A stretch of 48,272 bases of DNA from an uncultured Gammaproteobacteria bacterium (GTDB lineage: Bacteria > Patescibacteriota > Patescibacteriia > UBA9934): NCBI GenBank assembly GCA_964582615.1, contig CAZORP010000008.1, positions 3,165 to 51,436 of the forward strand, given 5' to 3'. Position 1 is the stretch's first letter, and every line of letters starts with the position of its first letter. The position numbers and the translations under genes were made by a program. Shown here piece after piece: positions 1 through 17,668 of the stretch. The notes under the pieces are model-generated. The model was not told the origin of the DNA and did not search any database. It saw only the letters and a program-made list of their open reading frames with translations.

Positions 1-55
1 TACCGGAGCCGCGAGGTCGTCTGGCGTGAGAGATCCACTTGTGAGGAATCCTCCG
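1..55. repeat. Exact 55-nt direct repeat, copy 1 (copy 2 at 610..664)
   Basis: taccggagccgcgaggtcgtctggcgtgagagatccacttgtgaggaatcctccg is identical at 1..55 and 610..664. The flanks diverge immediately after it. Confidence 0.95.
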
Positions 56-3000
56 CGAAGTCCGCCAATGCTACCGACAATCGTGAGGGATGGTGTTGCA
101 CCGGTGTCAGGTACCCCACCTTCTTCTAGCGTGAGCGTGAGGACGCTGTCCCCTGTTCTTGTGAGTGTTGTCACCGTGTAACCGTCGAGCGTGACGTCCG
201 AGGCGTCGAGTGTGAGTGCATCCACATCTTCCGAGAGCGTGAGGATGACGTGGTCAAGGTAACCATCTTCGTCAGCGTCTTGGGTGTCTGCACTTACAAG
301 ACTTGGTGCAAAGGACTCTGTTGTAAAGGTTGCGGGAAGGACGAGGCTTGCAAGGGTCACAAGGGTGTTGCCTGCAAGATCCTCTCCCGTGGGCAAGCTT
401 AGCGTGACGTCGCTTGCGTAGTCCCAAGCATCTGTGTGCGTGAGGGTAAGTACCGTGTCACCAAGGGACCATACCTCTGCGAGATCTGCAGGTTCGTCAG
501 AGAAGACGAGCGACACGAGTGTCGTGTTCATGGGCTCGGAGAAGGTAAGGACGACATCCTGTGTACGTGCAACATTGGTCTGTCCATCTTCTGGGGTGAG
601 CGTGAGAAGTACCGGAGCCGCGAGGTCGTCTGGCGTGAGAGATCCACTTGTGAGGAATCCTCCGTTGATACCAGAAATGGTATCAACGATCGAAACGCTA
701 GGTGTAGCTCCCGTATCAGGAACTCCGCCCTCCATAAAGGTGACCACAATCTCATCAACATCCCCTCGAACAGCTGAGGTTACCGTATATCCATCTACGA
801 GAATATCACCTACATCAATACTCTCAGCGATAATTTCTTCTGAAAAAGAAATGGTAACGCCATCAAGGTAACCATCAGCATCTGCATCTATTGTTGCCGA
901 AGAAACAAGTGAAGGATTGAGCACTTGAATTCTAAATGTCGCAGGAAGTACCGCTCCGGTTGCCGCATCGATAAATGCATTTCCCGAAGGATCGGGAGCG
1001 GCAAGTATGGAAAAAGTTACATATTCAGCATACGACCAAGGTCCAGTATGCGATATGGTGAGAATCTTATTATCAACACTCCACGAATCAGAAATTCCCG
1101 ATGGCATCGATGAAAGATCATAACTCACCATGCCTGTCGCCAATGATTCACTAAAGGCGGCAGTGATATCTGCATAAGGATCAACTTCGCTATCTGCATC
1201 AGCCGGTGTCAGCGTAATGAGCACTGGAGAGGCTTCGTCGGCAAGTGAATGCGTTGCGATGGATGAAACAATGTTATTCGCCGCATCACGAAGGTGAGCT
1301 GTATCGCTATAGGAAATCTCAGGCTCAACTCCCCCACTCGATCCCGTAGTAAATGAATCGGCTGTGACAGAGAATTCTAATGTTGTCGTTCCATTTCCAC
1401 CGTAAAGTCCAGAAAGCGCAAGTCCCGAGAGATCATTTGCATCAAGTGTCCAGTCAAGTGCATCAAAGGTGATAAGTGCCGGCTCGGTAAATACTAGATG
1501 AACGCGATCAACCGTACCATCTTCATTGACATCTTGGTAGGCTGGTAGATTTCCCGCATCGGTACGAAGAATTGGCATTGCGCCATCACGAACCGTTGTT
1601 GCAGAGAAGGACTGTAGACGATTTCCCGAAGGGTCTTCAACGTATCCCAAAAGAGGCTCAAAAGATAGCGTAGGCTGAGATCCCCCAACGGAAATTCCCG
1701 TAAGCCAATCTTGTGCTGTTGCCGAAAGATAAATCGTGGAAGATCCACTACCACTTTCATAACCCGTAATTGTAAGGTCAGTAATGCTATTTGGCACAAT
1801 ATACCAATCCGTCGATCCGTACGAAATGGAAATCGGCTCGGTAAACATCAAACGAACGCGATCAATCGTTCCATCACTATCCGCATCCTCGTAACGAGGT
1901 GAGAGACCGTTATCCGAACGCAAGCGAGGATCGGCATCATCGATAAGCGTCGAGAAGTTAAAAGCGCTTAATGCATTTCCCGCACCATCAGTGAGTGAAT
2001 TTGGACTGCCACCAAGCCCCGTGTAGCCGAACGAGATATCCAGAGCTGTAGTATATTCAGGAGATCCCGTAAGGGTAAAGCGTAGGGATGTTCCCGGGAG
2101 TGAAGGACACGCCACGAAGGAAATATCCCCCACGTCAGGGCCTCCAAAGGCATAATCATTAGCCTCACACACACCAACAGCAACCTCTTCAGAAAAGACA
2201 ACATCAATAGCATCAATTTGTCCATCACTATTTTCATCAACATACTTAGCAGAAAGAGCTTCAGCAGAAGCCCCGTCGGCAAGCGTACCAAGAGAGAGGG
2301 ACGTTCGAGCGTTTCCAGCATCATCGACTAAGGATCCGATTGTCGCCGTGAAGATAACAAAAGGACCAGTAACCGCCCCTGTTATATGTGCATTTGCCGT
2401 TGCAGAAAAAAGAATTTCATCAGTGCCGTTTCCCGAACTAATTCCTGTAATATCAAATCCCGTAAGGTTATTAGCAGTAACATCCCAATCCCCATCGCTA
2501 TAAACAATGGTTACATTTTCAGTAAACACTACTCGAACAATATCCACAACTGACTCCCCACTCTTTTCATAACGAGCACTCACAACGCGTGGAAGTGCAA
2601 GGTCAGTCAGTGTCTGGCTTGAAAACGTTGCGGCAGAATTTCCGACATCATCAACAATAGAGTTGGCAACAATACCTCCTCCTGAATACGCCAGCGTAAG
2701 TGAAAGCGAAGTCGTGTCCTCGGGAGTTCCCGAGAGGACTAAAGAAAGCGTACTTCCCGCAATACTACAAGAAGCTATCGTAACCCCCGAGCTTCCCGAC
2801 CCACCCAAAACGTAATCATCTTCTTCGCATGATGATCCCTCGATAGATTCCGAGTAAACAACCTGGGCTCGATCAATTCTTCCGTCACTATTTACGTCAA
2901 TATACTTCCAAGAATATGCAACAGGAGCCGCTCCATCGGTAGAAATAATCTCCCCCGAAGTCATATATTGACCACCCGCTCCCTGCACCGAACCAACGAC

Positions 3001-6000
3001 CGTAACCGTTGGAGTCGCCCCGGTGGTATACGTCGTCTCCGTGAGCGTGAGAGTTATCTCCCCTGACGCAGTTCTCGAGGCACCTGTAACCGTATATCCG
3101 CCGACGGAAAAATCCCCCGCCGCAACGGTTCCTGAAATAATATCCTCCGAAAGAGAAAGAACGATGGTGTCAATCTTTCCGTCAGCATCAAGATCTTGAG
3201 TTTCTGCGGACACAAGCTCCGGAGTAGTGACAGCGATAGAAAATGTTGCGGGATGCGTTACCCCAGAAGACCCGCCAGCAAACGTATTTCCAGAAGCATC
3301 CGGAGCGGCAGTCACCGTGAAAGTAACATCAGATCCACTCGTCCAAGCCTCAGCATGAGAAAGTGTAAGAAGTGTATTGCTCAAAGACCAGGCCTCTGAA
3401 AGATCCGCCGGGGTCTGAGAGAGCGTGTATGAAACTGAAGCTGTCACGACAGGTTCGGTAAATGCAACCGCAATATCAGCGATTCCAGAAACATCTACAT
3501 CGTCATTCGCCGGACTCAACGAAAGTATTCTCGGACGAGCACCATCAAGAAGCGACATCTCTGAAATTGTCATCAGCGCATTTCCATAATCATCCTCAAG
3601 TGATCCAAGTGTCGCTAAAAATTCCAGAGTCGGTTGAGTTCCCGTGCCAACACCCGTCAATCCAGCATCAGCAGATGCGGAGAGGTAAAGGGTTTCAGTT
3701 CCATTTCCTGAAGCGTATCCCGTAACCGTGAAAGCGCTCAAATCATTGGATGATGCACTCCAGTCACTTGCATCAAATGTCAACGTTACATTTTCGGTAA
3801 AAAGAAGTCGAACACGATCAATAGTTCCGTCACCGTTCGCATCTTCGTATCGTGGAGCCGAACCTCCAGCAAGAAGCACGGGAGCGGCAAGATCGACATG
3901 ACTTTCATTGAGGTCAGGTGAGCTTGTAACATTAACCCCATCAGTCCACTCCCCCGCTATTCCAAAGATGTTTAGTGATCCTATTGCGGTATTCCTTGTC
4001 GACTGTCCAAGTACATTAGTCAAAACAATCGACGACGATGCTCCTGCGGGATCGGAAATAGTCGCAGAGGAAACGAGAGATCCGTCAGGAAGCCGTATAC
4101 TTCCAAAATCAGCAAGCACAGGAGCAGACCCATCATCAGTGTCAACATTTTCTGACCAAGAAATCGTCAATTTATCAATAAAACCATCAGCATTTACATC
4201 CTCAGCTTCGAGCGTTGCAATATGCGGTGCAGCACCATCGGCGATCATGAGATCGCCCCAAGAAGCGACAGGATTTCCTGAAATATCACGAAGACCATTT
4301 GCCGTACCAGACGATGCCGAGTACGAAAAGAGAATTCCTAAATCAGTATTTTCTTGAGCAAGATTTGAGAGTCCAAATCGAACATCGCTAGCATTTTCCG
4401 TGCACGAAGAAACCGAAAGACTTGGCGCCTCGGGGCTTGTTAGCGTGTAATCTCCACTCTCACAAAGGTCAACATCCATGGCCTCGGAGAAGGAAATGTC
4501 AACTCTATTCACCGAACCGTCAACATCGGTATCCTTATAAATCCCCGAGAGCACAATAGGAGCCGCTCCATCGTCAGGATTCGTATCGCCAAACGTAATC
4601 TCACCAGAAGAAGCTCCGCTTATTGTACCAACAATGCTCACCATTGGTGTTGCGGCGGTATCGTAAGAAAGCTTCTCGTCAAGCACGATAGTTACGACTC
4701 CACTTGCCGTTCGTGATGCGGAGAGAACATCATAGCCATCAACCAAGAAGTCAGAACCATCAACCGTAATATCCTGAATATCCTGGTCAAAACTTACTTC
4801 AATTGCATCAATATATCCGTCGGTGTCAAAATCTCTTGTTATCGATCCTGTAAGTACTGGGTCAATAATTACCGCAACAATGGTGAACGTTGTTGGATTC
4901 GCAACACCCGAAACACTACCTTCAAATATATTTCCTGCAGCATCGGGGGCGCTGGCTATTTCGAAGTCAATGATTGCCGCCTCTGAAAAGTCTCCCACGT
5001 GCGAAATCGTAAGCGTCGTGTCACTTAGTGACCACGTGTCAGAAATTCCTGACGGCGTCTCAGAAAGAGTATATCCAACACTTCCCGTTGCAATAGATTC
5101 GCTAAATACTGCAACAATATCAGTATTAGCAGACACTTCAGTTGATCCGTTTGTGGGGCTAACCGAAAGCAATACTGGACCAGCGTAGTCATTAAGACTC
5201 TGCGTTGAAAATGAGGTCAATGCATTACTATCACCATCAATAAGAGATCCCGATCCTGCCGAGAAAGAAATGGTTGGCTGAACACCAGTGCCAACACCTG
5301 TAACATCACTTACCGCGGTTGCATTAAGATAGATAGTCGAAGAACCCGAACCCGAGGCATATCCTGTAACATCAAAACTCGCAAAATCATTCTGCGTAAT
5401 TGTCCAATCCGTATCTGCATACGTAACCGAAACATCTTCAGTGAACACCAACCGAACACGATCAATAGTTCCATTGGCATTCACATCCTCATATCGAGGA
5501 GCATTTCCTCCATCAGTTCTCAATAAAGGTGCCGCCAAATCTCCAAGAGTCACCGCATCAAAAGATGGCATAGCCTCAACCGAGACCGCCCCTTCTAAAG
5601 AATTTGCTGTGGCATTTTGCGCATCATACGCAATACGAACCGTAGTTGCCGTATCAAAAGCATTTCCTCCTGTAACCGTAAGCTGGACATCATCTCCCGA
5701 GACCGCGCATCCCGTGATTGTATAAAGACTTCCATCAAGGCCTGTAAGCGTATAGTCGGAAGCCTCACAACTCCCCACGGTCATCGCTTGAGAAAAACGA
5801 AGATCAAAACGATCAATCCGACCATCAGCGTTGCTGTCCTTGTACTTTCCGTAAAGAATAGCAATAGTTGCATTATCAACAAGTGATGCCGTCGAAATAC
5901 TTGAGCGACTATTTCCCGCATCATCAACAATACTTCCCCCCAATCCAGAAGAAAATGCGAGGGTCGGCTCAGTGCCACCAGAAACACCAACAATATCAGC

Positions 6001-9000
6001 CGCTGCCGTCGCATCGAGAGTAATAATTGTAGATCCATTTCCCGAAGCGTATCCCGTGACATCAAATCCCGTAAGGTCGTGTGCGGTAGCCGTCCAATTA
6101 GCATCACTGTACGTAAGCGTAACCGGCTCTGTAAAAATGAGAGTTACCGATGATACACCGCCGCTTGTGCTGTTATACGTTGGAGCATAGCCGCTATCCG
6201 TGCGCAACAGTGGAGCAACTCCGTCGATGAGTGGAGTTGAGGCCATTTCAGCAAATGCATTTCCCGAAGCATCAACCACAGATCCTGTCCCGGGAATAAA
6301 GGCAATTCTTGGTTCGGTACCACTACCAACACCGGTCTTTTGTGCGGAGGCTGTTGCGGAAAGATAGATCGTCTCCGTACCATTTCCCGAAAGATATCCT
6401 GTAACATCAAACGATGTGAGACTTCGTGCATTTGCCACCCAATCGGTATCGCTATACGTAAGCGTCGCGGGTTCGGTAAACACCAAACGAACCCTATCTA
6501 CCACACCATCATCATCAGCGTCTTCATACTTTGGACCCGACGAACCATCTGTACGAAGAACAGGAGCCGCGGCATCAGAAACCGCAGCATCAGTGATACT
6601 CGTAATGCTATTTCCTACATCATCAGCAATACTATTACTCAACCCCGCCGTTTGATTGTAGGAAAAAAGCACGTCAAGTAACGTGGTGTATTGGGGAGAT
6701 CCTGAAAGAGAAAGTTCAAGGGTATTCCCTGAGGTTCCACACGTTGTAACGCTCATCGAAGTACCATCGGCTCCCCCGAAATCATAATCACCAACCTCGC
6801 ACTCGCTGAGCACAATAACTTCACTAAAGGCAACGTCAATACGATCGACAGTTCCGTCATCATTGGTATCAAGATATTCATATAAGATTGGTCGAGGAGA
6901 TGTTGCGTCAAGCAATGTCGCCGCAGACCACGAGGCAATCGCACGATCTCCTCCGTCAAGAAGCGAAGACGATCCATTGTCGTAAGCAATGGTAAGATCG
7001 AGGTTTGTATCGTTTGCAGGAGTTCCCGAAATGGTGAGCTGCAAATCCTCTCCCGAAACCGCACATGATGCAACCGCAATACCAGAAGCATCCGTGCCTC
7101 CAAAGGTATAATCACCTGAAGAGCAAGATCCAACCTGAAGCTCTTCGGTGAAGGTGATATCAAGACGATCGATCTGTGCATCAAGATTCGTATCGCGATA
7201 CGATTGGTTCGTCTTTAGTGGTAATGCATAATCCGTAAGAGTTCTCGCAGAAAAACTTGAAATCGCCGCACCCGCTGCATCGATAATCGAACCACCACTT
7301 CCCGCGGAAAAAGCCAAGGTAGGCTCGGTTCCCAGAGCGCCAACGCCCGTTCTTCCCTCTTCCGCTGTAGCGGAAAGATACACCGTTGTCGTTCCATTTC
7401 CCGAAAGATAGGAACCAACATCAAAAGAAGAGAACGTTCCGTCAACCGCACTCCAGTTTGCATCAATATAGGTAACCGTCACTGATTCAGAGAAAACCAA
7501 ACGCACTCTATCTACCGTTCCGTCGGTATTATTATCCTCATATCTCGGAGCATTTCCTCCATCGTTACGAAGGTAGGGAGCGGCGCCATCAGCGAGTGTT
7601 GTTGAAGAAATGCTTTCGAGGACATTTGAAGATCCGTCTATGATACTTCCTCCACTTTGCAAAAAGGCAAGGGTTGGAGCCGTTCCTGAACCAACACCCG
7701 TCACGCCCGATGCCGCCGTAGCAGAAAGGTAGATTGTTGTCGTTCCATTTCCTGAAGTATAGCCCGTAACATCGAAGTCCGTGAGATCGTGGTCGGTTGC
7801 CGTCCAATCACCATCACTATACGTTACGGTTACTGCCTCACTAAATACTAAGCGAACCCTGTCTACCTGACCATCTCCCGTAGCATCTTCATATTTTGGA
7901 GCGTTCGAACCATCGGTACGAAGTACCGGAGCAGCAACATCAAGTAAAGATTCTCCATCATCAGGATTTGTCGTGGCATTTGTACCATCAGTCCACTGCG
8001 ATGTAATGCCATTAATTCCGAGAGATCCTGCTGCGGTGTTTATCGTCGTCTGGCCTGTCACATTTGTAAGCGTCACCACAGATGACGACCCTGCGGGATC
8101 GGAAATAGTCGCAGAAGCTACCGATTGTCCATCGGGAAGCGTAATCGTTCCAAAATCTGCCAAGACGGGAGCAGATCCATCATCAGTATCGACATTCTCA
8201 CTCCACGTTACCGTCAGCTTATCAATAAGACCGTTGGCATTGGTATCCTCACTTTCAAGAGAAAGAATTGCAGGAGCAGCACCATCGGTTACCGTACGCG
8301 CGGAAGAAAAAGTAGCAACGCTATTTCCCGAAGCATCAACAAGCCGATTTCCTCCGTTGGTATAGAGAATTTGAGGACTTACTGCGGAAGAGGTTTCTCC
8401 TGCATCCGCAGATACCGTCACCGCAATCGTTTCCGTTGATGAGGAAGATGCACCTGTGTCAGCAAGCGTTACACTTCCCGCGGTAGGAAAGCTCCAATCC
8501 GCGCTATTGTATGATGAAAGTGTCACTATTTCAGAGAACAGTATGTGAACGACATCAAGCGTTCCGTTCCCAGAAATATCTTTATACGCCGCAGAAATTG
8601 CCACCGGAGCGGCATCGTCGGTAAGCGAAGCGCTGCTTATGTTAGCAAGAGCATTTCCCGCACTATCTTCAAGAGAGTTTGCCGTTCCCGACGAAGCCGT
8701 ATAGCTCAACGTTAATGCAAGTGACGTATCATACGATGGCCCACCGGTGAGGGTGAGTGTGAGCGTATCGCCCAAAACACTACATGCACTCACCGCAAAT
8801 GAACCCGCATCCAAACCTCCGAAACTATAATCAGCTGCATCACACTCCCCTAGTGCAATATCCTCAGAAAAGAGTGCCGTAAGGGTATCAACCGTTCCAT
8901 TAGCATCTCCATCGGTATAAGTTCCCGATTGCCAAAGTGGAGCAGCGCCATCAGTTGAAGTAATATCACCAGAGGTTGTAGGATTTCCTGAAGTATCCGT

Positions 9001-11277
9001 TATCGATCCCACAATCGTCACGAGCGGTGTTGCATCGGTATCAATACTTACACTTTCCGTAAAAAGAATCGTCACCTCCCCACTTCCTGTGCGTGAAACG
9101 GAAGTTACCGTAAAGGCTCCAACGGTAAAATCCTCGGTACTCAAAGAACCCGAGGAGACGTCGTTATCAAAAAGGAGAACAACACCATCGATATGTCCAT
9201 CAGCGTCTACATCCTGCGTTGTCGATGACGTCATGACAGGACCTGGTAAAAATGCCTGTGCGAGAACCACCGTTCCATCATCTCCATACACCGAACTACC
9301 AGGACGCAATCCTCCTGCAGTATTAGCAGAAGAAGTCATTGTTGATAAAAATGTGGAAGAATCCGTAGTGTAGTAAATGTAGATACGACCTCCCGAGCCT
9401 CCTCCGCCATCTCTTATAGTTCCCGTCACATCTCCACCATTACCTCCTGCGGCAACTATTGAACCTGAACCCGCCAAAGTGTCCGCCGAGATATGAATAC
9501 TTCCTCCCGAGCCACCTCCACCACCATATCCCGTTCCCGAAATCGTTCCCGTTGATCCCGAAGCCCGTATCAATCCCTCTATCGTTAATGTTCCAATATC
9601 AAGGGTAAGCAAACCTCCCCCGGCTCCCCCAAAAGCATTTGTTGCATTACCCGCCGAAGAGCCAAAAAACTGAGGATTATTTTGATCACCATACGAGCTA
9701 CCACCAGCAGCACTTGATGCACTTGTTCCTCCAGATCCTCCATGCCCTGCACCTCCTGTTCCTCCTGACGTCGAAAGACCCGAAGTCGCACCACCCGTCG
9801 CGAGAGTACATGCATTTCCCGCATCAGGACCGTAGCCAGCGGCTGAATTCGTAGAGTTAGTCCTACACCCCTTTCCTGTTGCATTGATCGATGCCGTGCT
9901 ATTGACCGTTAGTGCATCAAGAATAAGCGAAGCATTTCCTGCAATACTTGAGGTGCCCGCAAGAGTAATGTCAGAAAGTGGCTCGTTCAAGGAAAAAATA
10001 CCTTCGTTTGTTGTAGAAATAGTAACATTGGTCCATGTTTGAGAAACGTCATCAGGAAGGTCAAGGGTGAGATCGGCACCCGTGGTACCTACCGCAAGCG
10101 ATGCCCCTGTTCCAAAAGTAAAGCCGCCCGTTGCTGCAACCGAAAAACTTGTTAACGACGTTCCCGAACAGGAAAAAGCACCATTAATCACCATGGTGAG
10201 TGCAGAAATTGATGGCGTTGCGGCAGAATTTAAACAAGCAAGCGTTGAGCTTGTTGCGAATGTAACTTCGTCAAAGGTGTAGTCAACATCCGCAGCAACG
10301 AAATTCCCAAAAAATGTTGTGTAGTCCGCCGTCGCATCGTACACCTTCGCCAAACCCGCCGTTCCCGCCGAAGTACCACCACTCGTTCCTCCTGCAGTAA
10401 GAAATTTTGATGAGGTAAGAGACGCGGTAGATGTGGTGTATTGCAAAAAAATCCTTCCTCCACCTCCTCCTCCCGAATCCGAACTTGTATCAACTCCTGC
10501 GCCACCTTTTACCGAGAAGGTTCCCGTGGAATTTTCGTATGAACCAACTACTACATTAATCGACCCTCCACTTCCTGCACCACTCGCACCTCCCCCACCT
10601 GTTGTTGCGCCATTCCCTCCATCTGCGACCAAAGAACCATTATGGGTAAAGGTTCCCGAGATGGAAAGGCGAATAATTCCTCCTCCAATACCCGCACTCG
10701 TGGTAAAAGCCTTGCCTCCCGAAGATCCAAAAAAAAGAGGATTATCATAGGATCCATAGATCGTTCCTCCTCCCTTATTTGCACCGCTTGTACCACCGAT
10801 ACCCGCATACCCTCCACCACCTGCAGACTGCGATGAACTCCCAGACGCCGTACCATACCCTGCAGTGCTTACTGTACAGATGTTTGACGAGTTTGGACCA
10901 AAACCATTCGATGAACTCGCGGCGCCAGCCGTGGTACAACCCTTTTGCGAAGAGCTAATACTACTTCCAGAATCTATCGTAAGATTATCTGCAGTGAGCC
11001 ACCCATAATATCCATTCGTCGTATCTGATGCAAATGTAAGAGTGCTATTGTTTGTTATAAGCACGGTCTTACCGGAACAATCCCACGTGGTTGCATCGGT
11101 TGGAGTCCACGTTGTACTTGCGTTAATGGTGATTGTTCCATTTACCGTAGCATCACTGTCTCCAGCTCCGCCATCGGTTACTGGACATGCCGCGGCAAAT
11201 GTTTGTTGTAGGGGGAAGAGAGAAAAAAAGAGAACGCTGAAAATTCCAAGAAGAAGCGTTCTAAAAAGCATTTTCAT
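1..11277 (-). CDS. Giant secreted modular surface protein, N-terminal 3,759 codons; C-terminus lies beyond the left window edge
   Basis: Absent from the ORF track, which omits ORFs lacking a stop inside the window. The reverse complement from 11277 reads ATG AAA ATG CTT..., giving MKMLFRTLLLGIFSVLFFSLFPLQQTFAAA/CPVTDGGAGDSDATVNGTITINASTTWTPTD (signal peptide with an AxA site). 11277 is divisible by 3. Every listed minus-strand ORF inside 1..11277 ends at a coordinate that is 1 or 2 mod 3, so this frame has no listed fragments, consistent with one open frame. Hand translation at about 30 checkpoints stayed open (e.g. 9361-9390 GRIYIYYTTD; 8938-8952 DGAAP; 4-30 DDLAAP). Confidence 0.85.
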   Translation of the reverse strand, partial: MKMLFRTLLLGIFSVLFFSLFPLQQTFAAACPVTDGGAGDSDATVNGTITINASTTWTPTDATTWDCSGKTVLITNNSTLTFASDTTNGYYGWLTADNLTIDSGSSISSSQKGCTTAGAASSSNGFGPNSSNICTVSTAGYGTASGSSSQSAGGGGYAGIGGTSGANKGGGTIYGSYDNPLFFGSSGGKAFTTSAGIGGGIIRLSISGTFTHNGSLVADGGNGATTGGGGASGAGSGGSINVVVGSYENSTGTFSVKGGAGVDTSSDSGGGGGGRIFLQYTTSTASLTSSKFLTAGGTSGGTSAGTAGLAKVYDATADYTTFFGNFVAADVDYTFDEVTFATSSTLACLNSAATPSISALTMVINGAFSCSGTSLTSFSVAATGGFTFGTGASLAVGTTGADLTLDLPDDVSQTWTNVTISTTNEGIFSLNEPLSDITLAGTSSIAGNASLILDALTVNSTASINATGKGCRTNSTNSAAGYGPDAGNACTLATGGATSGLSTSGGTGGAGHGGSGGTSASSAAGGSSYGDQNNPQFFGSSAGNATNAFGGAGGGLLTLDIGTLTIEGLIRASGSTGTISGTGYGGGGGSGGSIHISADTLAGSGSIVAAGGNGGDVTGTIRDGGGGSGGRIYIYYTTDSSTFLSTMTSSANTAGGLRPGSSVYGDDGTVVLAQAFLPGPVMTSSTTQDVDADGHIDGVVLLFDNDVSSGSLSTEDFTVGAFTVTSVSRTGSGEVTILFTESVSIDTDATPLVTIVGSITDTSGNPTTSGDITSTDGAAPLWQSGTYTDGDANGTVDTLTALFSEDIALGECDAADYSFGGLDAGSFAVSACSVLGDTLTLTLTGGPSYDTSLALTLSYTASSGTANSLEDSAGNALANISSASLTDDAAPVAISAAYKDISGNGTLDVVHILFSEIVTLSSYNSADWSFPTAGSVTLADTGASSSSTETIAVTVSADAGETSSAVSPQILYTNGGNRLVDASGNSVATFSSARTVTDGAAPAILSLESEDTNANGLIDKLTVTWSENVDTDDGSAPVLADFGTITLPDGQSVASATISDPAGSSSVVTLTNVTGQTTINTAAGSLGINGITSQWTDGTNATTNPDDGESLLDVAAPVLRTDGSNAPKYEDATGDGQVDRVRLVFSEAVTVTYSDGDWTATDHDLTDFDVTGYTSGNGTTTIYLSATAASGVTGVGSGTAPTLAFLQSGGSIIDGSSNVLESISSTTLADGAAPYLRNDGGNAPRYEDNNTDGTVDRVRLVFSESVTVTYIDANWSAVDGTFSSFDVGSYLSGNGTTTVYLSATAEEGRTGVGALGTEPTLAFSAGSGGSIIDAAGAAISSFSARTLTDYALPLKTNQSYRDTNLDAQIDRLDITFTEELQVGSCSSGDYTFGGTDASGIAVASCAVSGEDLQLTISGTPANDTNLDLTIAYDNGSSSLLDGGDRAIASWSAATLLDATSPRPILYEYLDTNDDGTVDRIDVAFSEVIVLSECEVGDYDFGGADGTSMSVTTCGTSGNTLELSLSGSPQYTTLLDVLFSYNQTAGLSNSIADDVGNSITSITDAAVSDAAAPVLRTDGSSGPKYEDADDDGVVDRVRLVFTEPATLTYSDTDWVANARSLTSFDVTGYLSGNGTETIYLSATASAQKTGVGSGTEPRIAFIPGTGSVVDASGNAFAEMASTPLIDGVAPLLRTDSGYAPTYNSTSGGVSSVTLIFTEPVTLTYSDANWTATAHDLTGFDVTGYASGNGSTIITLDATAAADIVGVSGGTEPTLAFSSGLGGSIVDDAGNSRSSISTASLVDNATIAILYGKYKDSNADGRIDRFDLRFSQAMTVGSCEASDYTLTGLDGSLYTITGCAVSGDDVQLTVTGGNAFDTATTVRIAYDAQNATANSLEGAVSVEAMPSFDAVTLGDLAAPLLRTDGGNAPRYEDVNANGTIDRVRLVFTEDVSVTYADTDWTITQNDFASFDVTGYASGSGSSTIYLNATAVSDVTGVGTGVQPTISFSAGSGSLIDGDSNALTSFSTQSLNDYAGPVLLSVSPTNGSTEVSANTDIVAVFSESIATGSVGYTLSETPSGISDTWSLSDTTLTISHVGDFSEAAIIDFEIASAPDAAGNIFEGSVSGVANPTTFTIVAVIIDPVLTGSITRDFDTDGYIDAIEVSFDQDIQDITVDGSDFLVDGYDVLSASRTASGVVTIVLDEKLSYDTAATPMVSIVGTISGASSGEITFGDTNPDDGAAPIVLSGIYKDTDVDGSVNRVDISFSEAMDVDLCESGDYTLTSPEAPSLSVSSCTENASDVRFGLSNLAQENTDLGILFSYSASSGTANGLRDISGNPVASWGDLMIADGAAPHIATLEAEDVNADGFIDKLTISWSENVDTDDGSAPVLADFGSIRLPDGSLVSSATISDPAGASSSIVLTNVLGQSTRNTAIGSLNIFGIAGEWTDGVNVTSSPDLNESHVDLAAPVLLAGGSAPRYEDANGDGTIDRVRLLFTENVTLTFDASDWSASSNDLSAFTVTGYASGNGTETLYLSASADAGLTGVGTGTQPTLEFLATLGSLEDDYGNALMTISEMSLLDGARPRILSLSPANDDVDVSGIADIAVAFTEPVVTASVSYTLSQTPADLSEAWSLSNTLLTLSHAEAWTSGSDVTFTVTAAPDASGNTFAGGSSGVTHPATFSIAVTTPELVSAETQDLDADGKIDTIVLSLSEDIISGTVAAGDFSVGGYTVTGASRTASGEITLTLTETTYTTGATPTVTVVGSVQGAGGQYMTSGEIISTDGAAPVAYSWKYIDVNSDGRIDRAQVVYSESIEGSSCEEDDYVLGGSGSSGVTIASCSIAGSTLSLVLSGTPEDTTSLSLTLAYSGGGIVANSIVDDVGNSAATFSSQTLTDLALPRVVSARYEKSGESVVDIVRVVFTENVTIVYSDGDWDVTANNLTGFDITGISSGNGTDEILFSATANAHITGAVTGPFVIFTATIGSLVDDAGNARTSLSLGTLADGASAEALSAKYVDENSDGQIDAIDVVFSEEVAVGVCEANDYAFGGPDVGDISFVACPSLPGTSLRFTLTGSPEYTTALDISFGYTGLGGSPNSLTDGAGNALSAFNFSTLIDDADPRLRSDNGLSPRYEDADSDGTIDRVRLMFTEPISISYGSTDWYIVPNSITDLTITGYESGSGSSTIYLSATAQDWLTGISVGGSQPTLSFEPLLGYVEDPSGNRLQSFSATTVRDGAMPILRTDAGNLPAYQDVNEDGTVDRVHLVFTEPALITFDALDWTLDANDLSGLALSGLYGGNGTTTLEFSVTADSFTTGSSGGVEPEISYSDTAHLRDAANNIVSSIATHSLADEASPVLITLTPADADSEVDPYADITAAFSESLATGMVSYDLSSMPSGISDSWSVDNKILTISHTGPWSYAEYVTFSILAAPDPSGNAFIDAATGAVLPATFRIQVLNPSLVSSATIDADADGYLDGVTISFSEEIIAESIDVGDILVDGYTVTSAVRGDVDEIVVTFMEGGVPDTGATPSVSIVDTISGINGGFLTSGSLTPDDLAAPVLLTLTPEDGQTNVARTQDVVLTFSEPMNTTLVSLVFSDEPADLAEVWSLGDTVLTLTHTDAWDYASDVTLSLPTGEDLAGNTLVTLASLVLPATFTTESFAPSLVSADTQDADEDGYLDHVILTLSEDVDALTLDASDVTLDGYTVTTLTRTGDSVLTLTLEEGGVPDTGATPSLTIVGSIGGLRGGFLTSGSLTPDDLAAPV
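610..664. repeat. Exact 55-nt direct repeat, copy 2
   Basis: Identical to 1..55. It marks the start of the same module type (SbsA/Big_5-like) one 609-nt super-unit away. Confidence 0.95.
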
Positions 11278-11286
11278 AACGCAAAA

Positions 11287-11317
11287 AGTATAGCATTTTA
11301 TACCAACTTTTTTACAA
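11287..11317 (-). promoter_or_regulatory. Putative promoter of the giant gene (TTGTAA-N19-TGcTATACT), -10 only 9 nt from the ATG
   Basis: The minus strand reads ttgtaaaaaagttggtataaaaTGcTATACTttttgcgttATG. The extended -10 is good; the -35 spacing of 19 nt is long. No Shine-Dalgarno sequence is present. Confidence 0.35.
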
Positions 11318-11339
11318 CCATCTGTGTATAAAAAACACG

Positions 11340-11819
11340 CTATTCTTCGCGTGTTTTCGTACGTTCTCCAGAGATTTTTTTCACTTCTCTTGCAAAGGTT
11401 TCAAGGTCATTAAATTGCTTATAGACCGAAGCAAATCTAATGTATGCAACCTCATCAAAATCCTTCAGATGCTTTGCGACAATGTCACCGAGCACTGAAC
11501 TCGTCATCTCACCTCCTCGTTGACGATGAATATCCCGCTCAATGTCGTGCGTAAGACGAGAAATATCCTGTTCGGTCGCCGGTCGCTTGTGAAGAGCTCT
11601 ACGAATACCTACAAGCATCTTTTCTCGCTGATACTGCTCGCGTCTGCCATTTCGCTTTACAATCACAATATCAAGCAATTCAACTTGCTCAAGGGTTGAA
11701 AAGCGAAAAACACACGTGCTCTTTTCACATTCACGACGGCGACGAACCGCATCGCCGTCATCGGTAAGACGAGAGTCAACAACCCGCGTCGAAGTTCCAT
11801 TACACAGCGGGCAGTGCAT
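11340..11819 (-). CDS. nrdR: Transcriptional repressor NrdR (zinc ribbon + ATP-cone)
   Basis: 159 aa. It begins MHCPLCNGTSTRVVDSRLTDDG..RRRRECEKSTCVFRFSTLE (Cys4 ribbon), followed by the ATP-cone IVIVKRNGRREQYQREKMLVGIRRAL...AYIRFASVYKQF. It starts 3 nt after the ftsZ stop. Confidence 0.9.
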   Translation of the reverse strand: MHCPLCNGTSTRVVDSRLTDDGDAVRRRRECEKSTCVFRFSTLEQVELLDIVIVKRNGRREQYQREKMLVGIRRALHKRPATEQDISRLTHDIERDIHRQRGGEMTSSVLGDIVAKHLKDFDEVAYIRFASVYKQFNDLETFAREVKKISGERTKTREE

Positions 11820-11822
11820 AAA

Positions 11823-13184
11823 CTACATCATTTTTTTGCGCAAAAACGCAGGAATTGCCCACTCTCCTTCTTCCTCTTTCTCTTTTTGCACAGGAGCCTG
11901 AGCTACTGAAGGTTGAGGTGCGGGCTGTGTCTGATACTGAGCTCGTGAAACTGGAGCAGGATTGAAAGAAGCCGTGGATGCTTCTTCAAATGAAGATCCT
12001 GAAGTTTGTTGTGCAGGTGGGGTAAACGTTCGACGAGCAAACGGCGTCTCGGATCCCTGAGAAACCGAAGCATATGAGGGTACTTGTGCCTGTGGAGCAA
12101 ACTGAGGAGCTTGCTGAGGCTGTGGAGCCGTCTGAGATGCAAATGGAGATGCCTTTACGGAACTCTGTTGCCATCCGCTTTTTGCGGCAATCGTAACCTC
12201 TCCCCCCAGTGAAGGAGCTCTTCGGAATTCACGGTTGTCAAAACCTGTCGCAACAACTGTCACTCTAATTTCATCTTCCAAGCTTTCATCGCGAATAAGT
12301 CCAAAAATAATTTTCGCATCGTCATCAGCGGCGCTCGTAATAACCTTTGACGCCTCGGTGACTTCGAACATCGTTACATTCTTTCCTCCGGTTACCGTAA
12401 AAAGAATTCCCTTCGCGCCATCAATGGAAACTTCAAGGAGTGGGCTTGCGATAGCCTGTTTTGCGGCTTCAACTGCGCGGTTATCTCCCGTTGCTCGACC
12501 GATGCCCATGAGCGCAGATCCTGAATTTTGCATGATAGCTTTAACATCAGCAAAGTCAACGTTAATCTCGCCAGCAGTCGTAATCATCTCAGCAATACCT
12601 TGAACGCCCTGACGAAGAACATCGTCAATAATACGAAAAGCTTCTTGGATGGTGGTATTTTTATCAATAATTTGCAAAACGCGATCGTTGGGAATTGTGA
12701 TAATCGTATCAACGTGCTGAGAAAGTTCCTGATGAGCGTCATCAGCGATGCGCTTGCGCTGAGGTCCCTCAAAAATAAAAGGCTTCGTAACAACCGCAAC
12801 CGTAAGCGCACCTACTTCTCGAGCAATTTTTGCGATTTCTGCGGCGGCGCCACTTCCTGTTCCACCACCGAGTCCAGCAGTAAGGAATACCATATCCGCA
12901 CCACCAAGTGCATTACGAATATCCGCGGCACTTTCCTCAACCGCGTGCTTGCCCATTTGGGGATTCATACCTGCACCAAGCCCTCGCGTGACCGACTTTC
13001 CGATAGGAATTTTATTAGGAGCGGTATTAATATGAAGAGCCTGAGCATCGGTATTTACCGCGATAAACTCAATACCACGGATGCCTTCTGCAACCATGCG
13101 ATTCAGTGCATTGCCGCCTCCACCACCAACACCAATGACTTTAATCTTCGCACATGTTTCAATATCCGGTTTGATTTGAGCCAT
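11823..13184 (-). CDS. ftsZ: Cell division protein FtsZ
   Basis: Carries the tubulin signature GVGGGGGNALNRM, GGGTGSGAA, NVDFADV and the C-terminal peptide WAIPAFLRKK. The ATG at 13184 (MAQIKPDIE) is preferred. The track start at 13271 adds 29 hydrophobic non-FtsZ residues. Confidence 0.95.
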   Translation of the reverse strand: MAQIKPDIETCAKIKVIGVGGGGGNALNRMVAEGIRGIEFIAVNTDAQALHINTAPNKIPIGKSVTRGLGAGMNPQMGKHAVEESAADIRNALGGADMVFLTAGLGGGTGSGAAAEIAKIAREVGALTVAVVTKPFIFEGPQRKRIADDAHQELSQHVDTIITIPNDRVLQIIDKNTTIQEAFRIIDDVLRQGVQGIAEMITTAGEINVDFADVKAIMQNSGSALMGIGRATGDNRAVEAAKQAIASPLLEVSIDGAKGILFTVTGGKNVTMFEVTEASKVITSAADDDAKIIFGLIRDESLEDEIRVTVVATGFDNREFRRAPSLGGEVTIAAKSGWQQSSVKASPFASQTAPQPQQAPQFAPQAQVPSYASVSQGSETPFARRTFTPPAQQTSGSSFEEASTASFNPAPVSRAQYQTQPAPQPSVAQAPVQKEKEEEGEWAIPAFLRKKMM

Positions 13185-13246
13185 AAGACAGGAAAAGCGT
13201 AACGGACTGAATAAAAACGTCAATGGAACCACCCACAGTCTGGAAA

Positions 13247-14506
13247 CTATGGTAAAAATGTCTTCATCCAATCTCGCATTTTTTGAGCAACCTTATCGGC
13301 GCTCTTAAACCGGAAGAGGTTTCCTAGTGAAAATCCTTTTTGATGAAGAGATTGAATATTATACCCCCATTGAGCTAGACCAATCGCCGTAGAAAATGCT
13401 GGATCGTAAAGCTCATCGAGAACACTAGTAACAACTGTTGGCGCTCCAAGTGCACAAGGAAGTCGCAAGACGCGCTTACCAACCTCAAGAACGCCCTCAA
13501 GTTTCATACCTCCACCAACACAAATAGCGCCCACGGGAAGCATACCCGAGCGATCAATCTTTTTAAGCTCAGCGTCTACAAGTCCAAAGAGTTCCTCCAT
13601 GCGAGCCTCAATGATTTCAGCAACAAATCGACGCTTAATATCGTCTTGAAGATCAATTCCAAGCTCCTGAAGAGGAAGTGATTGCTTGCGGTCAATAGCA
13701 TCAGGAACCGCGTGTCCGTATGCCACTTTCACTCGTTCGGCAATATCAATAGAAGTCCGAAGTCCAATAGCGATATCGTTGGTAACATGATCTCCGCCAA
13801 GAGGCAGTACCGCGGTATGTAATAAGTCCCCCTCTTCAAAGACTGCGAGCGAGGTTGTGGAAGCGCCAATATTTACCATGCATACACCAAGCTCTTTCTG
13901 ACGCTGTGTTAATACCGCTTCAGCGGTTGCCAAGGGGCCAAATACCACTTCATCAATATCAAGCCCTGTGCGGTAAATGCTCTTTGTGAGATTTTTTATA
14001 TGCGCAGAAAGCACCTCAACAAGCATGGCATCAACTTCAAGACGAATACCCGACATGCCAACAGGATCTTTAATGCCACGCTGACCATCAACTGAGAAGC
14101 TCTTTGGAATGACGTGAAGAATTTCGTAGTTTGCGGGAATTGCAATGGTTTTTGCGGCTTCAACTGCACGTTCAACGTCATCTTCGGTAATTTCTCCATC
14201 AGGCTTTGTTACCGCAACCGCTCCTCTGCTTGCCTGAATGACACTCTGCTGACCAGAAAGTGCAACCCATGCTGAATTTATTTGCACGCCCGTCATGCGC
14301 TCTGCGCGCTCAAGGGCTCGAGAAAGAGCGGACACCGCATCTTCCATACTCGAAAGAGCTCCGCGATGAACGCCAAGAGACGGGGACGACAACGCGCCAA
14401 TAAGCTGAATATGCGGTTTTCCATCATCCTGCACAACACTCTTGCAGAGCGCAATGCGGATCATTGAGGAACCGATATCAAGACCTGTGATAATTTCATC
14501 AGCCAT
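13247..14506 (-). CDS. ftsA: Cell division protein FtsA (actin-like ATPase)
   Basis: Motifs ITGLDIGSSMIRIA, VNIGASTTSLAVF and CVGGGMKLEGV. The gene lies directly upstream of ftsZ. The ATG at 14506 is preferred over the TTG at 14512. Confidence 0.9.
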   Translation of the reverse strand: MADEIITGLDIGSSMIRIALCKSVVQDDGKPHIQLIGALSSPSLGVHRGALSSMEDAVSALSRALERAERMTGVQINSAWVALSGQQSVIQASRGAVAVTKPDGEITEDDVERAVEAAKTIAIPANYEILHVIPKSFSVDGQRGIKDPVGMSGIRLEVDAMLVEVLSAHIKNLTKSIYRTGLDIDEVVFGPLATAEAVLTQRQKELGVCMVNIGASTTSLAVFEEGDLLHTAVLPLGGDHVTNDIAIGLRTSIDIAERVKVAYGHAVPDAIDRKQSLPLQELGIDLQDDIKRRFVAEIIEARMEELFGLVDAELKKIDRSGMLPVGAICVGGGMKLEGVLEVGKRVLRLPCALGAPTVVTSVLDELYDPAFSTAIGLAQWGYNIQSLHQKGFSLGNLFRFKSADKVAQKMRDWMKTFLP

Positions 14507-14525
14507 ACACAAACTCGATGCGGGA

Positions 14526-14903
14526 TTATTTTACCACATGCGAAAATAACGCAAGGATATGGGGAAGAAAAAGTGCACCACCAATGCCAAATGCCGCAAG
14601 TGCCGTAAGCAAAACAGAGCCCGCCATCATGTCTTTCACTTCTCGCATTGTACCATGAAGACGGGGATGCAAGGCATCCGCAAAACGCTCAAGAACACTA
14701 TTCATAATTTCAAGCACCAAAACACCAAGCACTAAAAGTGCAATAACAATGCGCTCCCAGGCCGCGAAGGAAATAATCCACGAAAGCATGATTGCGCATC
14801 CTCCAAAAATAAGCTGTATGCGAAAATTCTGCTCACTTTGTGCGACATCGTAAATGCCACGAATGGCATAATGTACACTTTTTCGAAGACGAGAAAACAT
14901 CAT
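14526..14903 (-). CDS. dgkA: Diacylglycerol/undecaprenol kinase family protein (DgkA)
   Basis: 125 aa with 3 TM segments. Motifs EIMNSVLE and KDMMAGSVLL match the prokaryotic DAGK family. Its start overlaps the ybeY stop (ATGA). Confidence 0.85.
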   Translation of the reverse strand: MMFSRLRKSVHYAIRGIYDVAQSEQNFRIQLIFGGCAIMLSWIISFAAWERIVIALLVLGVLVLEIMNSVLERFADALHPRLHGTMREVKDMMAGSVLLTALAAFGIGGALFLPHILALFSHVVK

Positions 14904-15325
14904 AGGGATCGCAATATTTCAGCCACCAGAGCATCTTGAAGGGGAAACATTTGCTGAGCATCAGCAGGATCTTCATGATCATAACCAAGAACATGAAGAA
15001 TGCCGTGAACTAAAAGATCGAGAAGTTCAAGCTCGTCATCTCCTTCCGACTGACGAAGCGCCTGCGCCATACAGATAAGCACATCGCCAAGCTCCTCGCT
15101 ATAAGGGCTTTCAAGAGGAAATGAAAGAACGTCAGTTACCTTGTCCTTACCTCGATGCATGCGATTAAGTCTTCGTATCTCAGTTTCATCTACAATGTGA
15201 ATGTGAATAATTCCAGAAACCTTTGGCAGTTGACGAGAGAAAGCTTGCCTTACACGGCGAAGCATGCCATCGCTAAAGCGAAGGCTGTTCGGAAGAAGGC
15301 TCTGTTCGACATCAAAAGAAAGCAT
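14900..15325 (-). CDS. ybeY: rRNA maturation endoribonuclease YbeY
   Basis: 141 aa with the zinc motif HGILHVLGYDH. The ybeY-dgkA order is typical. Confidence 0.9.
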   Translation of the reverse strand: MLSFDVEQSLLPNSLRFSDGMLRRVRQAFSRQLPKVSGIIHIHIVDETEIRRLNRMHRGKDKVTDVLSFPLESPYSEELGDVLICMAQALRQSEGDDELELLDLLVHGILHVLGYDHEDPADAQQMFPLQDALVAEILRSL

Positions 15326-15327
15326 GT

Positions 15328-16242
15328 TTAGGGGGTTTGCACTGACTGATTCTCTTCAACGACAGGAAGCGTAATACTGTTAAGCATCATAGAAAATGTC
15401 TGGAGATATTCGATGCTCAGAGCAGAACCAAGCTCATATACTGCGTGAATGCCATACGCGCCACCATCGATATACGCTTCGCGTCCATTATTTGCAAGAA
15501 GTCCGAGATATCCCTGTTTTGTGAGAAGCTCATGAAAACCCGTAAATGACTTCCCCATCTGACGAACCCAGGGTTTTACCTGTAATAACGCATCCTTTTT
15601 CTCAAGAGAAAAAGAGATCTTTTCACCTTTCTCCAAGGCGAATGAAATAAGTGAACCGTCAGAGGAAACATTCCACGACGCGGGGTAAAGAATAGTTACC
15701 GGAAGTGCATCTGAAGAAAGTACCTTCACTGTTCCTGTATCACGAAGCGTCTCTGGGGAAAGGCCCGTTGGGCTATATCGGTGAAAAACCTCATTACCAT
15801 CAAGAAATGTGTCACCATCAGTATCGGGATTTCGAGACTCGGTTGCGTAAAGACGCTCCTCAATATCCGTAAGTCCATCACTATCTGCATCACTTCCCGG
15901 AAGAGGATCCTTGGGCTTCTCATCAACAACAGGAACAACAACCACCGGTGGAACCTCCTGAGTGCCCCCAAATATACGGTCTTGAAAGAAGAAGAGCACA
16001 CCACCAACACCACCGCAAAGCAGTACAAATCCCAGTAAAAACCAGGGAAGACGAGATGTTGTATGAACAACCTGCGGTTCGGACGGAACCATAAATGGAA
16101 CAATAACCGGCTGAACCTCCACGGGTGGCGCCTGAAAACTTGCAGACGCAAGAGGATCGAATGCCAAAACCGCTTCCCGTGTGCGAAATTCTTTGGGAAG
16201 ACTAAAAAGTCTTGGGGATTCTGGCAAAAGACCTTCTGGCAT
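15328..16242 (-). CDS. Bitopic membrane protein with two TSP3-like Ca-binding repeats and an unknown C-terminal domain
   Basis: 304 aa. It has one TM segment (LPWFLLGFVLLCGGVGGVLFFF), then DADSDGLTDIEE and DTDGDTFLDGNE, then a roughly 170-aa beta-rich domain. It starts 2 nt after the previous stop. Confidence 0.75.
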   Translation of the reverse strand: MPEGLLPESPRLFSLPKEFRTREAVLAFDPLASASFQAPPVEVQPVIVPFMVPSEPQVVHTTSRLPWFLLGFVLLCGGVGGVLFFFQDRIFGGTQEVPPVVVVPVVDEKPKDPLPGSDADSDGLTDIEERLYATESRNPDTDGDTFLDGNEVFHRYSPTGLSPETLRDTGTVKVLSSDALPVTILYPASWNVSSDGSLISFALEKGEKISFSLEKKDALLQVKPWVRQMGKSFTGFHELLTKQGYLGLLANNGREAYIDGGAYGIHAVYELGSALSIEYLQTFSMMLNSITLPVVEENQSVQTP

Positions 16243-16244
16243 AC

Positions 16245-16844: not shown

Positions 16845-16847
16845 AAG

Positions 16848-17663: not shown

Positions 17664-17668
17664 AGAGA

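Follow-up and report, generated by a model that had tools for sequence, protein, structure and literature searches.

The stretch of DNA examined here, called the window below, comprises 48,272 nucleotides of contig CAZORP010000008.1 and belongs to a genome of the Patescibacteria, or candidate phyla radiation (CPR). Its left 11.3 kb is one real, native gene that has been truncated by the assembly. The gene occupies the minus strand (1..11277), is complete at its 5' end and is cut at its 3' end by the window or contig edge; the assignment is based on a stop-free frame, codon-position GC content, and colinear orthologs. From the ATG at 11277 down to base 1, the frame contains 3,759 codons and no stop under translation tables 11 and 4. 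The length of the region is an exact multiple of 3, and the frame is open right to base 1. At the base composition of the gene itself, a stop occurs with a probability of 0.050 per codon (one expected every ~20 codons), and the chance of such an open frame is ~7e-85. An earlier reading made from the letters of the window and a list of its open reading frames (ORFs), referred to here as the sequence-only reading, had proposed a stop-free frame of at least 3,759 codons that the ORF track does not show; retranslation confirms the frame, and its absence from the track has a simple origin. The left 11.3 kb looked empty because the ORF lister drops frames running off the edge; with these omitted, nothing of 150 aa or more is left of 11340. 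The encoded protein is of a known kind, built from uncatalogued domains. On balance it is taken to be a giant fibrillar adhesin-like cell-surface fibre of a CPR bacterium, with a C-terminal anchor and a distal head, and this reading is favoured with moderate confidence.

The codon-position GC content of the giant gene (0.55/0.54/0.37) is close to the values for ftsZ, pgk, gap, and further genes in the window, whose GC3 is 0.35-0.44, and for this reason the gene is regarded as native. Additional support is provided by a Logan short-read contig (run SRR16481183, 14,189 bp), which was located via NrdR and is independent of the source assembly. This contig is 100% identical to window positions 10005-21819, extends to ~24193, and independently confirms the start of the giant gene and its first 424 codons (1,272 nt). 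The composition of the protein is strongly skewed, with S 12.9, T 12.5, G 11.8, A 10.4, and D 8.9%, compared with K 0.7 and R 2.0%. The acidic residues (D+E) number 458 and the basic residues (K+R) 100. The description of the product as rich in T, S, G, D, and A and poor in basic residues thus agrees with the counts.

The N-terminus of the protein is MKMLFRTLLLGIFSVLFFSLFPLQQTFAAA/CPVTDGG. Residues 1-~30 (11188..11277, minus strand) form a clear Sec-type signal peptide, as had been proposed, with a probable signal peptidase I (SPase I) site after TFA/AAA that is followed by Cys31. It is the only hydrophobic segment among the 3,759 aa of the protein, and its layout corresponds to that of the orthologs, which begin alike with a signal peptide followed by A-A-[AS]-C-P-V-T-D-G-G. 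In the AlphaFold2 (AF2) model, this region contains a helix at aa 2-19 with a low predicted local distance difference test score (pLDDT). An extracellular location is predicted from the signal peptide, the lack of any other hydrophobic segment, the paired cysteines, and the acidity of the chain. The signal peptide also bears on a reverse topology, in which the protein would be tethered at its N-terminus, either as a lipoprotein through Cys31 or through an uncleaved signal anchor, and a C-terminal domain would act as the distal binder. Such an arrangement is consistent with the position of Cys31 directly after A-A-A, which is conserved in close orthologs. However, the -3 position is occupied by Ala and not by the Leu, Val, or Ile of a canonical lipobox, and distant homologs place their first Cys 6-7 residues past an ASA/AP site, with a second Cys ~35 residues further on, matching a disulfide pair. 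Cys31 as a lipobox cysteine was consequently judged unlikely; it is more likely a structural residue engaged in a disulfide.

The bulk of the fibre-like protein is a stalk of 28 tandem Ig-like domains, which covers aa 680-3753 (19..9240, minus strand) and was segmented with self-built hidden Markov models (HMMs). The domains are 96-119 aa long and fall into five types, occurring 5 (A), 8 (B), 9 (C), 2 (D), and 4 (E) times; the count for B includes an intermediate domain, X1, whose best match is to the B profile. From first to last, they run A B B D C C B B C C B C E A B D C E A B C B C C E A E A, and the stalk ends with six residues (DLAAPV) of a further E-like domain. Together with a duplicated head unit, these tandem domains account for the repeats from which the sequence-only reading had described the protein as being built. 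The four E domains belong to the Pfam family Big_5 (PF13205) and are located on the minus strand at 4873..5190 (E1), 3229-3546 (E2), 922-1239 (E3), and 313-627 (E4). The protein as a whole matches this family with an E-value of 9.6e-34 and 116.7 bits over four stretches, which are E1-E4 and no others, at a gathering threshold of 23.6 bits; a single E domain reaches 6.5e-10. The 24 domains of types A-D are missed by Pfam, with an E-value of 0.0023 at best and at most 19 bits against Big_5.

The A-D domains nevertheless share a recognizable plan, even though their identity to the reference domain is 16-64%. In the alignment of the 24 domains, P5, D19, G24, D27, and D45 are nearly invariant, and the strict motif D-x-[DN]-x-[DN]-G-x-[IVL]-[DN] is present in 19 of them. 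This DxDxDG segment follows the classical calcium-loop pattern (the Rigden & Galperin motif class). Over their first 36 columns, the A-D and E profiles show a relationship, with an hhalign probability of 85%. Big_5 and the A-D type share a 'D-x-A-A-P ... FSE-x-V' start and a 'D-x-x-G-N' end, whereas the DxDxDG loop of the A-D type stands where Big_5 has a 'P-x-N-G-x-x-x-V' segment. By these sequence comparisons, the A-D type is a Big_5-related Ig-like domain that is absent from Pfam. The AF2 model of the tandem C1-C2 consists of two beta-sandwiches with a pLDDT of 94 and a predicted TM-score (pTM) of 0.85, and in this model the DxDxDG motif occupies the loop that joins the first strand, which is short, to the long second strand. 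A Foldseek comparison of C1-C2 with the Protein Data Bank (PDB) returned generic tandem-Ig matches (Fabs, titin, nectin), none of them at E<1e-3. Each of seven B domains contains one pair of cysteines, 20 residues apart. With four further pairs in the head, the 22 cysteines of the protein form 11 evident pairs; such pairing is typical of extracellular proteins and suggests disulfides. No match to HemolysinCabind was found in the 3,759 aa or in the complete orthologs.

At its left edge, the window opens on an exact repeat. Positions 1..55 and 610-664 are 100% identical in self-comparison, lie at an A-to-E domain junction, and encode the peptide GGFLTSGSLTPDDLAAPV. The identity covers exactly 55 nt and then collapses: the surrounding DNA is ~55% identical, and the flanking protein units, E3-A4 and E4-A5, are 48% identical. 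A k-mer length of 55 is a common assembler default, and an exact 55-nt repeat that begins at base 1 resembles the end of a contig in a de Bruijn graph. Because the repeat starts at base 1, the left edge is read as a probable contig end at a branch of the assembly graph, with the gene continuing beyond it. Protein clusters place the products of the window on an NCBI contig of 51,436 bp, 3,164 bp longer than the window; given the repeat at base 1, the additional sequence would most likely be on the right. The exact 50-mer of the left edge had no match among genome or metagenome contigs, and the last 209 aa of the frame had no homologue at E<=1e-5. A repeat of this kind is a typical de Bruijn graph break, and the Logan assembly itself breaks inside the giant gene at one contig end and inside the neighbouring 3,068-aa gene at the other. 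Both facts would fit an assembly artefact, with the long frame arising from a chimeric join or from the collapse of a repeat. This explanation is nevertheless highly improbable: outside the last 0.6 kb, and thus apart from the 55-mer at the edge, the DNA repeats share only 73-84% identity; the Logan contig agrees fully throughout the overlap; the orthologs of three other assemblies keep the same domain order; and 3,759 open codons would not be expected by chance in a chimera. Owing to the modest identity of the intragenic repeats, repeat collapse is no concern inside the gene. The earlier worry about a collapsed assembly therefore holds for the last ~0.6 kb, where the exact 55-nt repeat lies, and can be set aside elsewhere, where repeats are at most 84% identical. 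The case illustrates how genes like this one come to be lost: a frame truncated at an edge is dropped by ORF callers, and repeats are where short-read assemblies break.

Between the signal peptide and the stalk of the putative fibre lies the head (9241..11190, minus strand), which the AF2 model and the homologs divide into two Gly-rich beta-solenoid units at ~aa 30-340 and 341-679. Both units contain a 'GC...G(Y/F)GPxx(S/G)NxC' loop and glycine turns (GGGSGGSI / GGGGGGRI), and they are 45% identical between aa 94-190 of unit 1 and aa 451-545 of unit 2 (E 3e-9). The four cysteine pairs of the head are 31/67, 114/134, 348/370, and 471/490. The AF2 model, for which 11 homologs served as the alignment, is all-beta with a mean pLDDT of 83.3 and a pTM of 0.80, and the most conserved residues across the homologs are glycines and cysteines. 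The closest curated family is the NCBIfam model AgmC_N (NF047640), derived from the N-terminal domain of Myxococcus AgmC: aa 480-647 of head unit 2 match model positions 224-407 with an E-value of 1.2e-13 and 50.8 bits, far below the curated cut-off of 275. The similarity is located in the glycine-rich turns and may reflect composition. A comparison of the whole giant protein with PDB sequences gave no match. The modelled solenoid makes the head a candidate ligand-binding tip.

The weak Foldseek neighbours listed for the head are nearly all right-handed beta-helices and include adhesins (EtpA, pertactin, Ag43, HMW1, PfbA) as well as tailspikes and polysaccharide lyases. This mixture opens a different interpretation, in which the head is a polysaccharide lyase or depolymerase carried on a stalk and attacks host or prey cells at their envelope or capsule. 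The tailspikes of P22, HK620, and CBA120, PL6 alginate lyases, polygalacturonase, and GH136 are all among these neighbours, and a link to cell-wall degradation has been made for giant proteins of predatory bacteria (bioRxiv 10.1101/2023.11.21.568195). All matches of the tailspike or lyase type are, however, non-significant (E >= 0.25, TM-score <= 0.2), no lyase or hydrolase family was matched in Pfam, NCBIfam, or PDB sequences, and the most conserved residues of the head are Gly and Cys, without an obvious catalytic set. A tethered enzyme is thus an unlikely description of the protein, and a binding head on an adhesin-like fibre is preferred.

The head recurs in large Patescibacteria proteins of 1,100-5,000 aa, encoded by metagenome-assembled genomes (MAGs) labelled as Peribacteria, Uhrbacteria, Kerfeldbacteria, and Parcubacteria. 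A word-indexed homologue search returned no relative longer than ~1,200 aa; the giant relatives came only from an exhaustive profile search and from tblastn-based locus searches. The profile of the 24 A-D domains was compared with 1.84 billion representative proteins and matched 3,182 of them at E<=1e-3, of which 255 reach E<=1e-30. Lengths of 2,000-7,700 aa are common in this set, with up to 52 copies of the domain. The two best matches are complete orthologs, colinear with the window protein and ~40% identical to it: P0121 (3,855 aa, ENA contig k141_413965) and P0122 (2,623 aa, GenBank MBT4857029.1), which is deposited for Candidatus Uhrbacteria as a 'hypothetical protein' and whose copy in IMG is automatically named 'trimeric autotransporter adhesin'. 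Both share with the window protein the signal peptide and 'AAACPVTDGGAGD' start, the head, and the stalk opening A-B-B-D. Two further orthologs are incomplete; one is 48% identical and cut at 1,791 aa (L002), and the other is at least 3,968 aa long, with 31 stalk domains, and cut at both ends (L012). Synteny with nrdR-ftsZ-ftsA was not found, and the orthologs lie in other housekeeping contexts. The proteins of the window form singleton clusters at 90% identity, indicating that the collection holds no close relative of the organism.

The complete orthologs show what is probably missing beyond the left edge. The tail of P0121 and P0122 opens with a final E domain (Big_5) and continues through an Ig domain of the Kre9/KNH-like type and an acidic linker to a conserved domain of ~150 aa at the C-terminus. 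As these proteins run ~280 aa past their last Big_5 domain, the proposal that the true protein is larger than the window stands. By analogy with them, the window protein would lack at least ~390 residues (one E domain and ~280 aa), which puts the complete chain at probably 4,100 aa or more. The ~150-aa domain is common to P0121, P0122, and four further proteins (L010, L013, L014, L016). After its alignment had been trimmed, the first version being too diverse, a locus search found the domain in 61 metagenome loci, where it ends 0-6 aa before the stop in most carrier ORFs (300-1,900 aa); the content upstream of it varies and at times includes A-D or E stalk domains. It occurs twice per locus in L082, L090, L091, L095, L099, L103, L123, and L124, once at the C-terminus of a ~540-aa ORF and once at the N-terminus of a ~1,400-aa ORF. 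On the basis of these sequence contexts, the domain is a movable module and not a strict C-terminal sorting signal. Inspected by eye, the C-terminal end of P0121 and P0122 is a soluble domain that lacks both an LPxTG motif and a transmembrane (TM) segment.

Proteins that share the head, treated here as paralogs, carry up to four head units and more familiar ends. One of them (L007) ends in four SLH stretches (E 3e-40), two others (L008, L027) have C-terminal SLH domains recognized by eye, and a fourth (L003) has TSP3 repeats followed by a TM helix and a basic tail at the C-terminus. The head paralogs thus swap their C-terminal anchors in a modular manner, as judged from their domain content. 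From the SLH and TM ends of the paralogs and the shared C-terminal domain of the orthologs, it follows that in this family the C-terminus is proximal to the cell and the head is distal. The orthologs' C-terminal domain would then probably hold the protein on the cell envelope, as a probable new anchoring or binding domain. The clear anchors of the paralogs also count against the reverse topology described above. The occurrence of the C-terminal domain at the N-termini of other proteins speaks for it, and overall an N-terminal tether is regarded as quite improbable.

The SLH domains of the paralogs raise a further possibility, namely an envelope protein of the S-layer type, in which the Ig array lies along the cell or builds the surface layer, as a sheath or an S-layer lattice, and does not project as an adhesive fibre. 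Big_5, a bacterial Ig-like domain, is typical of S-layer proteins such as SbsA, and many S-layer proteins are as extremely acidic as the giant protein. Against this, a monomer of at least 3,759 aa that strings together 28 domains and bears a distinct head at one end would be an unusual plan for an S-layer subunit, and no SLH or lattice-forming domain is present in the window protein or its direct orthologs. An S-layer role is accordingly held to be unlikely.

The preferred reading, an adhesin-like fibre, can be described as a sequence of steps. The signal peptide would direct the chain to Sec export and be cleaved by signal peptidase I, whose gene, lepB, is in the window (32059-32703). Outside the cell, oxidative folding would convert the 22 cysteines into 11 local disulfides. 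The first ~650 residues would form the two-unit Gly-rich beta-solenoid head, the candidate binding tip, and the stalk a rod of ~28-30 Ig-like beta-sandwich domains. With ~3.5-4.5 nm per Ig-like domain, as in titin and SiiE, such a rod would come to roughly 100 nm, a length similar to CPR cell size. Binding of Ca2+ at the DxDxDG loops would stiffen the rod; extender arrays of Ig-like domains stiffened by Ca2+ are established for RTX adhesins (PMC7493085, PMC4083281). By analogy with the orthologs, the missing C-terminus would contribute the Big_5 domain, the Kre9/KNH-like Ig domain, the acidic linker, and the ~150-aa domain seated on the envelope. In this way the head would be displayed well away from the small cell, to attach to a host cell or a surface. 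A precedent within the CPR is Vampirococcus, whose giant membrane proteins have been proposed to mediate host attachment (PMC8080830). The gene and its orthologs, the export signal, the anatomy and folds of the domains, and the break in the assembly are shown by the analysis; Ca2+ binding, disulfides, C-terminal anchoring, and the adhesive role are all predictions from sequence features of the protein and its relatives.

Several observations weigh against this reading. The protein's C-terminus lies outside the window, and the copy number of the terminal E-A units is not fixed by the assembly at the 55-nt repeat. Anchoring by the ~150-aa domain is a guess, considering that this domain also stands at the N-terminus of the ~1,400-aa stop-to-stop ORFs in eight loci and that profile searches found no relative of it in Pfam or among PDB sequences. 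Pfam has no family for the head either, and its Foldseek comparison with the PDB gave nothing at E<1e-3 (best E 0.086, the EtpA secretion domain). The presence of enzymes, both lyases and tailspike depolymerases, among its weak fold neighbours makes a catalytic head possible. As regards the stalk, the DxDxDG loops probably bind Ca2+, as judged from the motif alone, and strand order alone would place them near the N-terminal pole of each domain, beside the incoming linker.

Compared with known systems, the protein resembles the fibrillar adhesins of monoderm bacteria such as Cna and SasG (PMC8286594), with which it shares a giant secreted chain, an N-terminal non-repeat region, an Ig-like stalk, and the expectation of C-terminal anchoring. 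When compared with the definition of fibrillar adhesin-like proteins (PMC8286594), it has a predicted extracellular location, a stalk of tandem repeats, and a distinct N-terminal beta-solenoid as its candidate adhesive region, the solenoid matching no known adhesive domain family. In monoderm fibrillar adhesins, an N-terminal adhesive domain combined with a C-terminal anchor is the rule, and nearly half of them have no known anchor (PMC8286594). Their size can be considerable, as exemplified by a 7,651-aa adhesin of Mobiluncus (PMC10619420). Unlike the established members, the giant protein has no known adhesive or anchor Pfam domain and no LPxTG/sortase motif, which for the missing C-terminus was judged by eye on the orthologs. 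No classification exists for its head, for 24 of its 28 stalk domains, or for the C-terminal domain found in the orthologs, and its stabilization would come from disulfides and DxDxDG loops, in contrast to the isopeptide or ester cross-links of these adhesins.

The stalk is also similar to the extenders of RTX adhesins (MpIBP/MpAFP RII and LapA-type; PMC7493085, PMC4083281) and to the BIg arrays of SiiE, which likewise consist of acidic tandem beta-sandwiches of ~100 aa, nearly all of them bearing an acidic motif of the Ca2+ type. The RTX extenders have been proposed to project a terminal ligand-binding region away from the cell (PMC7493085, PMC4083281). RTX adhesins, however, are exported by type I secretion in diderm bacteria and have C-terminal RTX repeats and N-terminal outer-membrane retention, whereas the giant protein has a Sec signal peptide, lacks RTX/HemolysinCabind repeats, and belongs to a monoderm host; on these grounds it is not a member of the RTX or type I secreted adhesins. 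Moreover, its repeats are diverged, while those of RTX adhesins are near-identical. Among CPR bacteria, Vampirococcus lugosii is comparable in having a reduced genome and several surface proteins of 1.4-4.2 kaa, for which a part in recognizing and attaching to the host has been proposed (PMC8080830), but its reported domain sets are different (WD40, PKD, DUF11, integrin, fibronectin).

The kind of protein, its CPR precedent (PMC8080830), and the deposition of its orthologs as hypothetical proteins were therefore already known. What is new is the recognition of three recurrent domain families absent from Pfam, namely the head, the DxDxDG-Ig stalk, and the terminal domain, and a possible link to giant pilin fusions. 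These families would improve the annotation of thousands of giant proteins now listed as 'hypothetical'. If the stalk is Ca2+-dependent and the terminal domain is a wall anchor, the protein would represent a new anchoring solution for monoderm fibrillar adhesins. CPR bacteria have genomes of roughly 1 Mb and are thought to live attached to host cells; to our knowledge, the molecules by which they contact these hosts are mostly unknown. The giant gene, with at least 11.3 kb, corresponds to ~1% of such a genome, and together with its neighbours it brings the share of envelope proteins to about half of the 48-kb window. Due to this investment, the gene is a strong candidate for a role in host or surface attachment. 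The sequence-only reading had put the share of surface proteins at 46%, which is reproduced by the lengths of the giant gene and two large neighbours ((11277+9207+1794)/48272 = 46.15%). Its description of the surroundings as a minimal housekeeping genome is in line with a Patescibacteria/CPR genome, but its assessment of the surface proteins as remarkable applies only in a relative sense, as giant CPR surface proteins of 1.4-4.2 kaa had been reported (PMC8080830).

The rest of the window includes nrdR, ftsZ, ftsA, ybeY, hflX, hisS, lepB, pgk, gap, tsf, rpsB, queA, a PCRF/RF-1 release factor gene, prmC, and ftsW, and no tRNA gene was found in it. On the strand of the giant gene, the order of transcription is p597, p3068, three TSP3 membrane proteins, ybeY, dgkA, ftsA, ftsZ, nrdR, and the giant gene. 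The two large neighbours, p597 (597 aa; 26882-28675, minus strand) and p3068 (3,068 aa; 17669-26875, minus strand), each encode a signal peptide and a two-helix VirB2-like 'T4SS_pilin' domain (PF18895) joined to a large extracellular part, and p3068 additionally contains TIG, Big_5, DUF4215/'myxo disulfide' repeats, and VWA. Fusions of a pilin domain of this size are unusual. Next to them, at 15328-17681 on the minus strand, are the genes of three single-pass membrane proteins (304, 199, and 277 aa) with bacterial TSP3-type repeats, which are DxDxDG-like; the third protein is also Cys-rich.

At two loci from Uhrbacteria-type genomes, L010 of Ca. Uhrbacteria UBA12070 (14277-20849) and L013 (15417-21767), a head-protein paralog is followed directly downstream by homologs of p597 (identity 44-50%) and of p3068 (39%). 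Such homologs are not located beside the direct orthologs P0121 and P0122 (L080, L081), and the functional linkage of the head protein, p597, and p3068 is suggestive only, as judged from this gene order. In a Saccharibacterium, patescibacterial loci of the type IV secretion system (T4SS) with several VirB2-like pilins are essential for epibiotic growth (review PMC12857230). A broader proposal would combine three undescribed modules (the head, the DxDxDG-Ig domain, and the ~150-aa anchor) with the p597/p3068 pilin fusions and a T4SS-related apparatus into a host-contact fibre system centred on the Patescibacteria. This proposal is tentative and is given a low, though not negligible, probability. 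On the P0121 contig, a gene for a VirD4/TrwB-type T4SS coupling protein (L080, 4114-5847) is located ~4 kb upstream of the gene for this ortholog.

In the window, the region 11278..11352 (minus strand), upstream of the giant gene, contains a terminator-like hairpin with a T-run after nrdR (11352-11335), found by a terminator scan, and a TTGTAA-N19-TATACT element, read directly from the sequence, which ends 9 nt upstream of the ATG. Within the same region, no Shine-Dalgarno sequence was seen before the ATG, and the scan detected no consensus promoter with a spacing of 16-18 nt. If the element is read as a promoter, it hints weakly that the giant gene is transcribed on its own, as a nearly leaderless message.

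Several of the MAGs with a head protein (L004, L012, L015, L016, L023, L026, L036) are titled 'uncultured Gammaproteobacteria bacterium', and these labels appear doubtful, unless the bins mix host and epibiont. The only curated families that the envelope genes of the window resemble are Myxococcus surface proteins (AgmC_N, CglD/MtsD, and myxo_disulf_rpt). For the TSP3 proteins, the only such likenesses are sub-threshold matches to CglD and MtsD, which function in gliding and cohesion in Myxococcus, while myxo_disulf_rpt in p3068 passes its cut-off with 156 versus 20.8 bits. The likeness to Myxococcus may reflect a shared chemistry of extracellular repeats or a deeper relationship.

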